From the IMG/VR virus record IMGVR_UViG_2700989234_000006: a DNA stretch of 22,418 nt. One strand, written 5' to 3'. Shown piece after piece: positions 12,001-18,000 of this stretch (position 1 is its first letter; every line of letters begins with the position of its first letter). The DNA is from a virus (taxonomy: Duplodnaviria; Heunggongvirae; Uroviricota; Caudoviricetes). The position numbers are program-made.

Positions 12001-15000
12001 CGGCGAAAAATGCGGATATCAGTGGCAGTGTGAATGCGAACTCCGGGACGCTCAACAATGTCACGATAAATGAAAACTGTACGATTAAGGGCATGCTGGA
12101 GGCGACCCAGGTCAGAGGGGATTTCGTTAAAGCTGTATCAAAAGCCTTCCCGAAAAAAGTCGGTACGTGGGGTAACACGGAAACACCAGACGGTACGGTT
12201 ACAGTCACCATCAGCGATGATCATAACTTTGACCGCCAGATTATTATTCCGCCCATTATTTTTAACGGTATAGCGTATGACGATCCGGGGAGCGGAAATA
12301 ACCCAGGAGGCACGCGATACACGGGTTATGGTTTTGAAGTTCGCAAAAACGGCGTATTAATCGCATCCAGAGAAACTAAAGGGGCCATTCCCGGTAGTTA
12401 CAGTGCGGTTATTGATATGCCGAGTGGCAGGGGAAGCGTCACTCTGGAGTTTAAGATTTTCCAGAAAGGCAATCAGGGGGCAGGGAATATCACCGATTGT
12501 ACAGTGATTGTGACCAAAAAAGCGGCTTCCGGTATCAGTATTCGTTGAAATATTTATAACCCCAATAAATGGCGTCAGGAATGACGCCTTTTTTATTGCA
12601 GAAAAGCGAGAGGTAATTATGCGTAAAGTTTGTGCAGCCATTTTGTCCGCAGCCATTTGTCTGGCCGTATTCGGTGCGCCTGCATGGGCATCTGAACATC
12701 AGTCCACGCTGAGCGCGGGGTATCTTCATGCCTTGACGAACGTTCCCGGCAGCGATGATCTTAACGGGATTAACGTGAAATACCGTTATGAGTTTACGGA
12801 CACACTGGGGCTGGTGACGTCATTCAGCTATGCAGGAGACAAGAATCGCCAGCTGACCCGTTACAGCGATACCCGCTGGCATGAAGATTCCGTGCGTAAC
12901 CGCTGGTTCAGCGTGATGGCGGGGCCGTCTGTGCGCGTGAATGAATGGTTCAGCGCGTATGCGATGGCGGGTGTGTCTTACAGCCGTGTGTCGACTTTCT
13001 CCGGAGATTATCTGCAGGTGACCGACAACAAGGGGAAAACGCATGATGTGCTGACCGGAAGTGATGACGGTCGCCACAGCAACATGTCTCTGGCGTGGGG
13101 GACTGGCGTGCAGTTTAACCCGACCGAATCCGTGGCCATTGATGTCGCTTATGAAGGTTCCGGCAGTGGTGACTGGCGCACTGACGGTTTCATCGTGGGT
13201 GTCGGTTATAAATTCTGATTAGCCAGGTAACACAGTGTTATGACAGCCCGCCGGTTCAGGCGGGCTTTTTTGTGGGGTGAATATGGCAGTAAAGATTTCA
13301 GGTGTACTGAAAGACGGCACAGGAAAACCGGTACAGAACTGCACAATCCAGCTGAAAGCAAAACGTAACAGTACCACTGTGGTGGTGAACACGCTGGCCT
13401 CAGAAAATCCGGATGAAGCCGGGCGTTACAGCATGGACGTTGAGTACGGTCAGTATAGCGTTATTCTGTTGGTGGAGGGATTCCCGCCGTCACATGCCGG
13501 GACCATCACCGTGTATGAAGATTCTCAACCCGGTACGCTGAATGATTTTCTCGGTGCCATGACGGAGGATGATGCCCGTCCGGAGGCACTGCGACGTTTT
13601 GAACTGATGGTGGAAGAGGTGGCGCGTAACGCGTCCGCGGTGGCACAGAACACAGCAGCCGCGAAGAAGTCAGCCAGCGATGCCAGCACATCAGCCCGTG
13701 AGGCGGCAACCCATGCGACTGATGCTGCAGGCTCAGCACGCGCAGCCAGCACGTCAGCCGGACAGGCCGCGTCGTCGGCTCAGTCAGCGTCTTCCAGCGC
13801 AGGAACGGCATCAACAAAGGCTACTGAAGCATCAAAAAGTGCTGCCGCTGCAGAGTCCTCAAAAAGCGCGGCGGCTACCAGTGCTGGTGCGGCGAAAACG
13901 TCAGAAACGAATGCTGCAGCGTCACAAAAATCTGCAGCCACTTCTGCATCCACCGCGACCACGAAAGCGTCAGAAGCTGCCACCTCAGCCCGGGATGCGG
14001 CGGCCTCAAAAGAGGCAGCGAAATCATCAGAAACGAGCGCAGCCTCGAGCGCCAGTAGTGCCGCTTCCTCGGCAACGGCGGCAGCAAATTCTGCGAAGGC
14101 GGCAAAAACGTCCGAGACAAACGCCAGGTCTTCTGAAACGGCAGCGGGACAGAGCGCCTCAGCTGCGGCAGGCTCAAAAACAGCGGCTGCATTATCTGCC
14201 AGTGCCGCGTCAACAAGTGCCGGGCAGGCCTCAGCCAGTGCCACCGCCGCCGGAAAATCGGCAGAAAGTGCCGCATCGTCTGCTTCAACAGCCACAACGA
14301 AGGCTGGCGAAGCCACTGAACAGGCCAGCGCAGCAGCGAGGTCTGCTTCCGCAGCGAAGACATCCGAGACGAACGCGAAAGCGTCGGAAACCAGCGCAGA
14401 ATCCTCAAAAACGGCAGCCGCATCGTCCGCCAGTTCGGCAGCGTCATCGGCATCATCTGCGTCTGCTTCAAAAGATGAGGCGACCAGACAAGCGTCAGCA
14501 GCGAAGAGTAGCGCCACGACGGCATCCACGAAGGCGACAGAGGCAGCTGGCAGTGCGACGGCGGCAGCTCAGAGCAAAAGTACGGCGGAATCCGCGGCAA
14601 CGCGCGCCGAGACAGCGGCAAAACGGGCAGAGGATATTGCATCCGCCGTGGCGCTTGAGGATGCGAGCACGACGAAAAAGGGGATAGTACAGCTCAGCAG
14701 TGCGACCAACAGCACTTCCGAGTCACAGGCGGCAACGCCAAAAGCCGTTAAGGCCGCGTATGACCTGGCTAACGGGAAATACACCGCACAGGATGCAACG
14801 ACAGCACAGAAAGGGATAATCCAGCTAAGCAGCGCGACCAACAGCACATCTGAAACGCTTGCCGCGACACCAAAGGCAGTAAAAACAGCCTATGACAATG
14901 CTGAGAAACGTCTGCAGAAAGATCAGAACGGTGCGGATATCCCTGGCAAAGACACCTTTACGAAAAATATTGGTGCCTGCCGTGCCTTCGGTGGGTCAGT

Positions 15001-18000
15001 AAGCACAATAACAGGAAACTGGACGACTGCACAGTTTATCGAGTGGCTGGATTCTCAGGGAGCATTTAACCATCCCTACTGGATGTGCAAGGGTTCCTGG
15101 TCTTATGGCAATAATAAAATCATTACTGATACTGACTGCGGTAATATTCATCTCGCCGGAGCTGTCATTGAAGTAATGGGGATAAAGTCAGCGATGACGA
15201 TCCGCATTACCACACCGACCACCTCCACTGGTGGTGGAACAACTAACGCCCAGTTTACCTATATTAATCACGGAACAGATTATTCACCTGGCTGGCGAAG
15301 GGACTATAACTCCAGAAATAAGCCAACGGCATCAGAGATCGGGGCGTTACCGTCAGGTGGAACAGCAGTATCATCAGTTAATCTGGCTTCAAAAGGTCGG
15401 GTAACCGCGCTGACAGACAATACGCAGGGGGCAACAGGTCTTGAGTTATACGAGGTGTATAACAACGGATATCCAACAGCGTATGGAAATATCATTCACC
15501 TGAAAGGGATGACAGCCGTTGGCGAAGGTGAGTTACTCATCGGCTGGAGTGGTACAAGCGGTGCTCATGCTCCGGCATTTATTCGTTCACGACGGGATAC
15601 GACCGACGCAAACTGGTCGCCGTGGGCGCAGCTTTACACCTCGGCTCATCCTCCTGCAGAGTTTTATCCAGTCGGTGCACCAATCCCGTGGCCATCAGAT
15701 ACCGTTCCGTCTGGTTATGCCCTGATGCAGGGGCAGACTTTTGACAAATCTGCCTACCCGAAACTTGCAGCCGCTTATCCGTCAGGCGTGATCCCTGATA
15801 TGCGTGGCTGGACGATTAAGGGCAAACCTGCCAGTGGTCGAGCCGTATTATCTCAGGAACAGGACGGCATTAAATCGCACACCCACAGCGCCAGCGCATC
15901 CAGTACGGATTTGGGGACGAAAACCACATCGTCGTTTGATTACGGCACTAAATCCACGAATAACACTGGTGCGCATACCCATAGTTTAAGTGGCAGCACG
16001 AATGCAGCTGGTAATCACAGCCATAGAGATGGCCGTCGATTTAACCCCAGTGTTTTTAAAGATACTTATCAATATGGTTATACAAGCTCAGGTCAAAATA
16101 CTTGGGGTGTACAAGGCTCAGTAGGTATGTCTACGGGGTGGTTAGCTAATACCAGTACAGATGGTAATCATAGCCACTCACTGTCCGGCACAGCAGCATC
16201 TGCAGGTGCACACGCACATACTGTCGGTATTGGTGCACACACGCACTCCGTTGCGATTGGTTCACATGGACACACCATCACCGTTAACGCTGCTGGTAAC
16301 GCGGAAAACACCGTCAAAAACATCGCATTTAACTATATTGTGAGGCTTGCATAATGGCATTCAGAATGAGTGAACAACCACGGACCATAAAAATTTATAA
16401 TCTGCTGGCCGGAACTAATGAATTTATTGGTGAAGGTGATGCATATATTCCGCCTCATACAGGTCTGCCAGCAAACAGTACCGATATTGCACCGCCAGAT
16501 ATTCCGGCAGGCTTCGTGGCTGTTTTCAACAGTGATGAGGCATCGTGGCATCTCGTTGAAGATCATCGGGGTAAAACGGTTTATGACGTAGCGTCAGAGG
16601 ACGCGTTATTTATTTCTGAACTCGGTCCGTTACCGGAAAATGTTACCTGGTTATCGCCGGAAGGGGAGTTTCAGAAGTGGAACGGCACAGCCTGGGTGAA
16701 AGATGCAGAAGCAGAAAAACTGTTCCGGATCCGGGAGGCGGAAGAAACAAAAAACAGCCTGATGCAGGTAGCCAGTGAGCATATTGCGCCACTTCAGGAT
16801 GCTGTAGATCTGGAGATCGCAACGGAGGAAGAAAACTCGTTGCTGGAAGCCTGGAAGAAGTATCGGGTGTTGCTGAACCGTGTTGATACATCAACTGCAC
16901 CTGATATTGAGTGGCCTGTAATACCAGAAGTTTAAAATAAAAGCCCGCTTAAAATATCGCGGGCTTCGAAATATAAATGTATTTTCAGAGGCTAGAGCTT
17001 AGGATATCTCAGCGGCAATTAACTTATGAGGGATAGCTAAATACCAGAAGATAATTAGTTTTTACTATTTATCTTTGTTTGTGGTTCTCCTTCAGCAAGC
17101 TCAGCGCCAGTGACAGGATTGATGTCTTCATGGGATTTCAACCTTGTTGCCATAGCTTTTATCATAGCTTCTTGCTTGGTCGAAAGATTTATCGAGGCCT
17201 TCCCATCCCCACCGTCAACCGCTGGAACTGGATCGGAAACATAGTCAAAGTTTTCATCACTGTTCCAACTACCTCTGACGTCTTCACCTTCTGACATGTT
17301 GTAATATACGTTTTTGTATTTCTCAATTGGTGGTAATTTCCCTGGTGGAAAGGTGTTACGAATTGAATGTAATGCTTTTTCAAATGAAAGCATGTGTGCT
17401 GCTTCCCTGGTCATTAAAAATGCCAGAGTGTCTTTTACTCCAGGATCATCAGTAACATTAATGAGACGTTCGTAAATGATCTTTGCCCGAGCTTCAGCTG
17501 CAATATTTGAACGAAGATCGGCCGTGACTTCGCCAATAGTATCAACATAAGCTGCAGTCCAGGGTACTCCAGCTGAATTAGTTAATGCCGGGCCTCCTCC
17601 GTAGAGGAGAGAAGTTATATGGCTGTCATTGCCATTTTGAGTTAAGGAACGGTAAAGCTCAGCTTCATTCTCAGTTCCTTCAGCAAGTGCTCCTTTTGCA
17701 CCTTTGTTGAGCATACCAACAAGAGAACCAATAATTTCGAGATGACTTAGTTCTTCTGTTGCTATGTCCATCAGCATATCCCTTCGGCCTGCATCTTCAT
17801 CACTTAAGCCTTGAGTGAAGTATCGGCATGCTGCTGCAAGCTCACCCTGTGGCCCGCCGAATTGTTCTAAAAGTAGATTAGCCAAGCCTGGGTTTGGCTC
17901 ACTTACACGTACTGTATATTGAAGTTTTTTCACGTGTCTAAACATAATGCCTCCTCAAAAGAATTATTTTTTGGCTTCAACTCCATCAATTTCAGATCTG

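Follow-up and report, generated by a model that had tools for sequence, protein, structure and literature searches.

The side tail fibre Stf of phage Ur-lambda docks to the tail through a collar domain at the gpV/gpM junction; lambda residues 102-393 have been modelled as a proximal coiled coil, and in cryo-electron tomography (cryo-ET) of Ur-lambda the proximal part of the fibre appears as a straight segment (PMC12617516). The Ur-lambda Stf is an OmpC-binding fibre that increases the rate of adsorption 10-30-fold yet is not essential, and lambda side fibres are dispensable for plaque formation (PMC12617516). Assembly into four trimeric fibres per virion that accelerate adsorption is known for Ur-lambda alone (PMC12617516). 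The related Stf of Gifsy-1 binds the lipopolysaccharide (LPS) core rather than OmpC (PMC12312913). Exchange of stf among unrelated temperate and virulent phages has long been documented, recombination between lambda and the Rac and Qin fibre genes has been directly measured (PMC3945230), and functional chimeric fibres have been engineered at lambda R393 and S528 (PMC11338833). Here the stf gene of IMG/VR record IMGVR_UViG_2700989234_000006 is compared with these and other fibres. The record is a caudovirus sequence of 22,418 nucleotides, and this whole stretch is referred to as the window; features of the fibre region lie on its plus strand.

The stf gene and its relatives

The gene at 13283..16354 is very probably an intact side tail fibre gene of a lambda-like temperate Escherichia coli phage, representing a common "mEp460 type" allele and working as proposed below. 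Its coding sequence (CDS, 1,023 aa plus stop) corresponds to an exact protein in NCBI annotated as prophage tail fibre. The product contains the Pfam domains phage_tail_N (PF08400, E 8.9e-72), Phage_fiber_2 in two copies (PF03406, E 5.6e-38) and Collar (PF07484, E 6.7e-12), and matches 50 PHROG tail-fibre families. It shows the hallmarks of a lambda-type Stf, i.e. an N-terminus homologous to the attachment domain and a position after J and lom and before tfa. J (9135-12548, with all lambda J domains) and lom (12619-13218) were recognised from their open reading frames (ORFs) and Pfam matches. A terminator-like hairpin, read from the sequence, follows lom at 13245..13271 (stem GCCCGCC/GGCGGGC, then a T run), next to a GGGGTGA resembling a Shine-Dalgarno sequence (13274-13280). 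The start of tfa (16354..16935) overlaps the stf stop; the gene encodes a tail fibre assembly chaperone of 193 aa (Caudo_TAP, PF02413, E 4.6e-44) with 95% identity to lambda Tfa. The resulting order J-lom-stf-tfa is the canonical one of lambda.

The initial annotation had placed the gene at 13277-16354. This ORF exists and comprises 1,025 aa if read from GTG, with a start that is 6 nt too early and falls into the ribosome-binding site. The true start is evidently ATG 13283, because lambda Stf, mEp460 Stf and the StfR protein of the Rac prophage all begin with MAVKISG and because GTG 13277 sits inside the Shine-Dalgarno-like GGGGTGA. Residue numbers are counted from ATG 13283. With 1,023 aa the protein exceeds intact lambda Stf (774 aa, KT232076) by 249 aa, in agreement with the roughly 250 additional residues noticed initially.

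Identical 1,023-aa proteins are deposited in NCBI (e.g. CST93248.1, EEX8826654.1) on 144 contigs, under the name "prophage tail fiber N-terminal domain-containing protein", and the 90%-identity cluster of the protein has 4,246 members. At least 80% of stf is covered in 636 of 5,426 complete E. coli genomes (top match 98.7%). The phages mEp460_ev081, PhiR26_1, PhiR42_1 and PhiR68_2 carry the gene over its full length at 97%, annotated as side tail fibre. Stf of mEp460_ev081 (VUF53340.1) likewise has 1,023 aa and is collinear without gaps, at 98.2% amino acid identity (~18 substitutions). Its gene is flanked by lom upstream and tfa downstream as in the window; in mEp460, however, a Pin-type serine recombinase follows tfa, where the window carries stress-gene cargo.

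A recent, genome-specific chimera, in which foreign modules were inserted into a lambda-type stf, would account for the three extra or replaced blocks relative to lambda and for the drop in GC content from ~60% in the Ala/Ser/Thr-rich rod to ~46-50% in the central cassette. The GC shift, however, largely tracks amino acid composition, the rod being rich in Ala codons. The identical proteins, the large cluster, the collinear mEp460 homologue and the 636 E. coli genomes speak against a recent origin, as does K-12 StfR, which is collinear with the rod and the first fibre repeat with zero gaps; the chance of a recent chimera is close to negligible. As shown by the collinear, 98.2% identical Stf of mEp460 and by the identical entries in NCBI, the mosaic is old and widespread and reflects no event particular to this genome. 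Collinearity with a single known Stf, named initially as grounds for refutation, thus holds as far as novelty is concerned, and the mosaic character relative to lambda stands.

The allele is therefore already known: it is widespread, correctly annotated and ordinary for a gene family that is a classic example of hypervariability. Since about 1990, the mosaicism of tail fibres has served as a textbook case of horizontal exchange. The value of the allele as a discovery is small, given that the protein is databased under the right name and viable phages carry it.

A second alternative regards stf as a decaying, non-functional remnant in a cryptic prophage, comparable to the Rac fibre genes or to the stf of laboratory lambda, which carries a frameshift. 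Within this phage region an insertion sequence (IS) indeed lies 1.5 kb further downstream, truncated versions of the allele (661, 804, 901 and 948 aa) occur in IMG/VR, and lambda can do without its side fibres (PMC12617516). Against decay, the ORF is full length and equal to that of propagated phages, an intact tfa follows in translational coupling with stf, the upstream head-tail gene set is intact in the ORF list, and the IS disrupts a cargo gene and no virion gene. A remnant is very unlikely on this evidence, and the intact fibre gene is followed below from its anchor to its tip.

Anchor, rod and fibre repeats

The N-terminal anchor (collar) domain comprises aa 1-94 (13283..13564) and matches the Ur-lambda Stf chain of PDB 9E7M (E 3.8e-52), which is the sole part of that fibre resolved by single-particle cryo-electron microscopy. 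The Pfam phage_tail_N match is full-length and spans aa 1-134. Together with the tip (71-74% identity to lambda), these matches bear out the lambda Stf-like ends of the protein that had been pointed out at first.

The anchor is followed by an Ala/Ser/Thr-rich rod at aa ~105-462 (13595..14668), which consists of ~51 heptads of the form xxSAxxA without interruption, as seen from lag-7 autocorrelation and heptad rows. Residues 121-465 contain 38% Ala, 24% Ser and 12% Thr. The identity autocorrelation of aa 105-462 has its lag-7 peak at z = 10.4 against 500 shuffles, and further peaks follow at each multiple of 7 as far as 56. When the segment is arranged seven residues to a row, position 7 is Ala in 47 of 53 rows, position 4 is Ala in 35 and position 3 is Ser in 37. 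The unit KTSETNA occurs three times (nt 13895, 14105 and 14357) at spacings of 70 and 84 residues, i.e. 10 and 12 heptads, and the seven-residue register is continuous across ~358 residues. The Ala/Ser/Thr richness and the recurring units of the shaft were thus correctly recognised in the initial annotation; its description as an expanded low-complexity segment has to be modified, since the period is strictly heptad and the shaft is expanded only in comparison with lambda.

By analogy with Ur-lambda, the rod probably forms a trimeric coiled coil. The competing view of a disordered or glycosylation-type low-complexity linker without a rigid rod draws on the 75% of residues that are Ala, Ser or Thr, and on a core of Ala instead of Leu/Ile, which is unusual for stable coiled coils. 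Such a linker is hardly compatible with a heptad register unbroken over ~358 residues and with a length difference to lambda that is an exact multiple of 7; moreover, the homologous lambda segment 102-393 is modelled as coiled coil and corresponds to the straight proximal segment in cryo-ET of Ur-lambda (PMC12617516). The linker is accordingly rated as extremely improbable, and the coiled-coil rod is retained.

At the DNA level lambda matches the region of aa 1-302 with 87% identity, and the match resumes 315 nt further on. The stretch in between (14191..14505; 105 aa) is present in this stf and in Rac StfR and is missing in lambda Stf, whose rod deficit amounts to exactly 105 residues or 15 heptads. 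No long direct repeat was found at the junction of this indel. DNA blocks were used for the comparison, as whole-protein BLASTP against lambda slid along the repetitive rod and produced a misleading 60% alignment of aa 3-528. K-12 Rac StfR is collinear with aa 1-494 without gaps (95.5% DNA identity). A sample of 67 complete Stf proteins with N-termini 99-100% identical to this one was drawn from IMG/VR, and in about 60 of them the rod ends at residue 465. The long rod is the common form and lambda a short variant, because StfR and most IMG/VR relatives share the rod length. Canonical coiled coils rise by ~0.148 nm per residue. If canonical, the rod would measure ~53 nm and exceed that of lambda by ~15 nm.

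One IMG/VR relative (L031, Stf of 1,055 aa) has a rod longer by four residues, in which the Ala register shifts part-way; this resembles a coiled-coil stutter and not a whole-heptad indel. The DNA encoding the rod also contains shadow ORFs of up to 335 aa (13506-14847, both strands, five other frames). These are best explained by the monotonous GCN/TCN/ACN codons, which leave few stop triplets in any frame, and provide no evidence for genes.

Two Phage_fiber_2 repeats succeed the rod, copy 1 at aa 466-494 (14678..14764) and copy 2, 44 aa later, at aa 510-538 (14810..14896), both detected with Pfam PF03406 and by self-BLAST. They correspond to the motif of about 33 residues beginning with KGI(V/I) that had been reported to occur twice; its copies start at nt 14678 and 14810 and both match the PF03406 profile, a repeat of ~42 residues. 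The copies share 86% protein identity over a core of 29 residues and 75% DNA identity over 87 nt (self-BLAST E 1.6e-11). In stf, Tandem Repeats Finder returned only a 12-nt micro-repeat of 1.9 copies and not the 44-aa repeat, because just ~29 of 44 residues per period are conserved and DNA identity is only 75%.

Lambda Stf and StfR possess a single copy of the fibre repeat, in contrast to the two copies here, and the IMG/VR relatives possess one, two or three. The 5' side of the single StfR repeat is like copy 1 of the window and its 3' side like copy 2, which is exactly the pattern that unequal recombination between copies would produce.

Central cassette, tip and junctions

The central cassette (aa ~556-784, ~230 aa) is absent from lambda Stf, StfR and PhiR34_1 Stf. 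The two strings from which a module foreign to lambda Stf had been postulated are located at nt 14927 and 15086 and are missing in both lambda and StfR, so that this postulate is confirmed. The cassette has 64-81% identity to P1 Sv'/Mu S' and is composed of two modules. Module C1 (aa 544-687, 14912..15343) is a homologue of the first domain of the variable part of Mu S' and P1 S'. It matches PDB 8JU3 (E 9.5e-85), identified as Mu gp52 (PMC11821841), and is 81% identical to P1 Sv' 215-358 and 72% to Mu S' 23-168. Module C2 (GRVTAL..., aa 682-787, 15326..15643) is a homologue of P1 Sv' 47-153 (64% identity). The order of the modules is C1-C2 here and C2-C1 in P1. Parts of the cassette are also found in fibres of P2-like, SSU5-like, Goslar, Vibrio and Aeromonas phages. 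A lenient Pfam match to Gp34_trimer in the cassette was below threshold (19.7 bits, cutoff 27) and was rejected. A search of the literature for a publication on the structure of Mu gp52 yielded nothing useful.

The ends of C1 (15290-15345), C2 (15600-15665) and the Mu S' domain (L006, ~240-265) share the motif W..(D/L/I)Y...(K)P(S/T/P)A..(I/V/Y)G(A), which may represent a conserved inter-domain linker where modules join.

The C-terminal part (aa 794-1023, 15662..16351) is a T4 gp37-type receptor-binding tip (PDB 2XGF, E 1.9e-84) that begins with the collar domain PF07484 (nt ~15674-15817, E 6.7e-12). It is 67% identical to T4 gp37 over 228 aligned residues and 74% identical to lambda in the MAFFT alignment (71% by BLAST), and its C-terminal stretch of 11 residues is conserved with T4 gp37. 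Seven HxH motifs, proposed from the start to be of the T4 gp37 kind, lie at nt 15878, 15974, 16016, 16169, 16211, 16238 and 16265, and all seven occupy the same alignment columns as in T4 gp37. Lambda Stf has an eighth motif. Such histidine pairs coordinate iron along the T4 gp37 needle, according to the account of Bartual et al. (2010) given in PMC10175313. The tip is, to judge by its sequence, a true homologue of that iron-binding needle, and its histidines presumably bind metal as well; iron is suggested because the seven HxH motifs are conserved and the T4 crystal structure is available for comparison.

Between the third and fourth HxH motif a three-way MAFFT alignment delimits the variable head region of the tip (16025..16168). 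It measures 48 residues here, 34 in T4 and ~45 in lambda, with unrelated sequences, and the head region of StfR likewise differs from that of the window. The whole tip is 100% identical in the phages PhiR34_1 and Kati, whose central parts are different. The head region is likely the receptor-contacting end, and in view of its different sequence a changed receptor range, as raised by the initial annotation, seems plausible. A literature search on the Stf receptors of mEp460 and of the PhiR phages derived from the E. coli reference (ECOR) collection found nothing.

Each of the known fibres agrees with this Stf in part. Ur-lambda Stf (774 aa, UniProt P03764) has the collar, heptad rod, one Phage_fiber_2 repeat, gp37-type tip and Tfa in common with it, but has a hinge and a distal coiled coil of six chains (aa 394-525) in place of C1 and C2, as well as eight HxH motifs, an extra SFDYGTK unit and a different head region. 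Rac StfR (b1372, 1,120 aa) has an unrelated central cassette of ~354 aa instead of ~230 aa; both StfR and the PhiR34_1-type Stf (1,134 aa) share the junction motifs NGADIP and YP(V/A)GAPIPW with this Stf. T4 gp37 is unlike it in the rest of the protein and relies on the chaperone gp38 in place of Tfa. P1 S' (Sv') and Mu S' terminate in a receptor-binding end ...TWYNAGSI instead of a gp37-type tip and have the chaperone U' instead of a lambda-type Tfa, whereas the constant part of Mu S resembles the fibre repeat preceding C1 here.

From these comparisons, and from the alignments to lambda and StfR suggested at the outset, collinear and divergent blocks were mapped. Relative to lambda, identity shifts block by block, with 87% at the DNA level for aa 1-302, followed by the 105 aa missing in lambda, the second repeat, the cassette and the 71-74% identical tip. 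Block-wise changes are equally found against StfR, P1/Mu, T4 and PhiR34_1, in line with the modular exchange inferred initially. The comparison supports a mosaic gene apparently assembled from standard interchangeable fibre modules. The 67 IMG/VR relatives combine a constant N-terminus and rod with 39 different total lengths and with several types of tip, among them gp37-type and Mu/P1 S'-type (...TWYNAGSI) ends (loci L008-L087).

Identity to StfR-type proteins ends just past NGADIP and returns shortly before YP(V/A)GAPIPW. The sequence diverges from lambda where the fibre repeat ends and at YP(V/A)GAPIPW, positions that equal lambda R393 and S528. No gix/cix-type crossover site (core AAACCnnGGTTT) is present in or near stf; the sole match with one mismatch in the window, at 17884, is at chance level. 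Neither does the window contain a recombinase ORF after tfa, in contrast to mEp460, PhiR34_1 and Rac, where a Pin-type recombinase follows that gene. On its sequence, stf appears not to be a member of the invertible-segment fibre systems, with which it has only modules in common. Given that neither a gix/cix-like site within stf nor an invertase after tfa was found, recombination at conserved junction sequences is the best-supported route at this locus, its history being inferred. The coincidence of natural junctions with the fusion points used for engineered lambda particles of new host range is of modest practical value, and the polymorphism of rod length in whole heptads offers a design rule to builders of chimeric fibres.

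A more speculative proposal, which we consider improbable, is that rod and hinge serve as a length-tuning device, with unequal recombination among in-phase repeats setting the reach of the tip relative to J, and with the reversed order of C1 and C2 showing that domains are permuted too. If true, fibre reach would be tuned to e.g. the thickness of O-antigen or capsule. Both length tuning and permutation would extend the known mosaicism of tail fibres and introduce no new kind of system.

In the proposed mode of action, three chains would assemble into one fibre, presumably a trimer, with aa 1-94 clipping onto the tail above its tip as solved for Ur-lambda. The ~51 in-phase Ala-core heptads would form a long trimeric coiled-coil rod, succeeded by two Phage_fiber_2 repeats at the position of the lambda hinge and by a pair of globular modules like those of P1 S'/Mu S'. 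At the distal end, a collar of the gp37 type would be followed by a needle, stabilised through seven metal sites with histidine ligands, and by a small variable head; Tfa from the adjacent gene would act as chaperone in the folding of the tip. The head may contact the cell surface first and reversibly, via a porin such as OmpC or via the LPS core. This contact, made before the central J fibre reaches the surface, would speed adsorption, after which J would bind its own receptor.

Several points weigh against the fibre working in this way. Its function is read here from sequence, and both the trimeric coiled-coil geometry and the length of the rod are deduced from the periodicity of the sequence and by analogy with Ur-lambda. 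For C2 no solved counterpart was found, a PDB sequence search with this module alone having given no match at E up to 10, and AlphaFold2 run on aa 540-800 without an alignment returned an unusable model (mean pLDDT 31). The receptor cannot be read from the sequence, because the head differs from the OmpC-binding heads of lambda and T4 and because Gifsy-1 Stf binds the LPS core. Finally, as side fibres are dispensable in lambda, an intact ORF is no proof that the fibre is used.

Region downstream of tfa

The region after tfa, equivalent to the 'b region' of lambda, carries stress-type cargo genes on the minus strand (17055-20581). A Mn catalase is encoded at 17055-17945 and a KGG/con-10 stress protein at 20399-20581, and ferritin-like DUF892 genes resembling YciE/YciF lie at 17964-18401 and 19820-20326. 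E. coli Ec-U9-1 has this cargo set after tfa as well. An IS3-family insertion sequence (~18414-19717; orfA 18466-18792, orfB 18789-19679) has cut into the first DUF892 gene, which has lost its 5' end and retains 145 of 168 codons. The corresponding locus of Ec-U9-1, otherwise 98-99% identical, lacks this IS.

An exact copy of the 15-bp lambda att core (GCTTTTTTATACTAA) is found at 21427-21441, and next to it the minus strand encodes an integrase of the lambda type (21515-22327 and beyond). The 74 bp between the two (21442-21514) may correspond to the P' arm of lambda, which they appear to resemble. This layout of att core and int would be that of a vegetative attP, with the order J-lom-stf-tfa-b-attP-int, or of tandem prophages. 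At the att position, Ec-U9-1 possesses the bacterial ybhB/bioA side.

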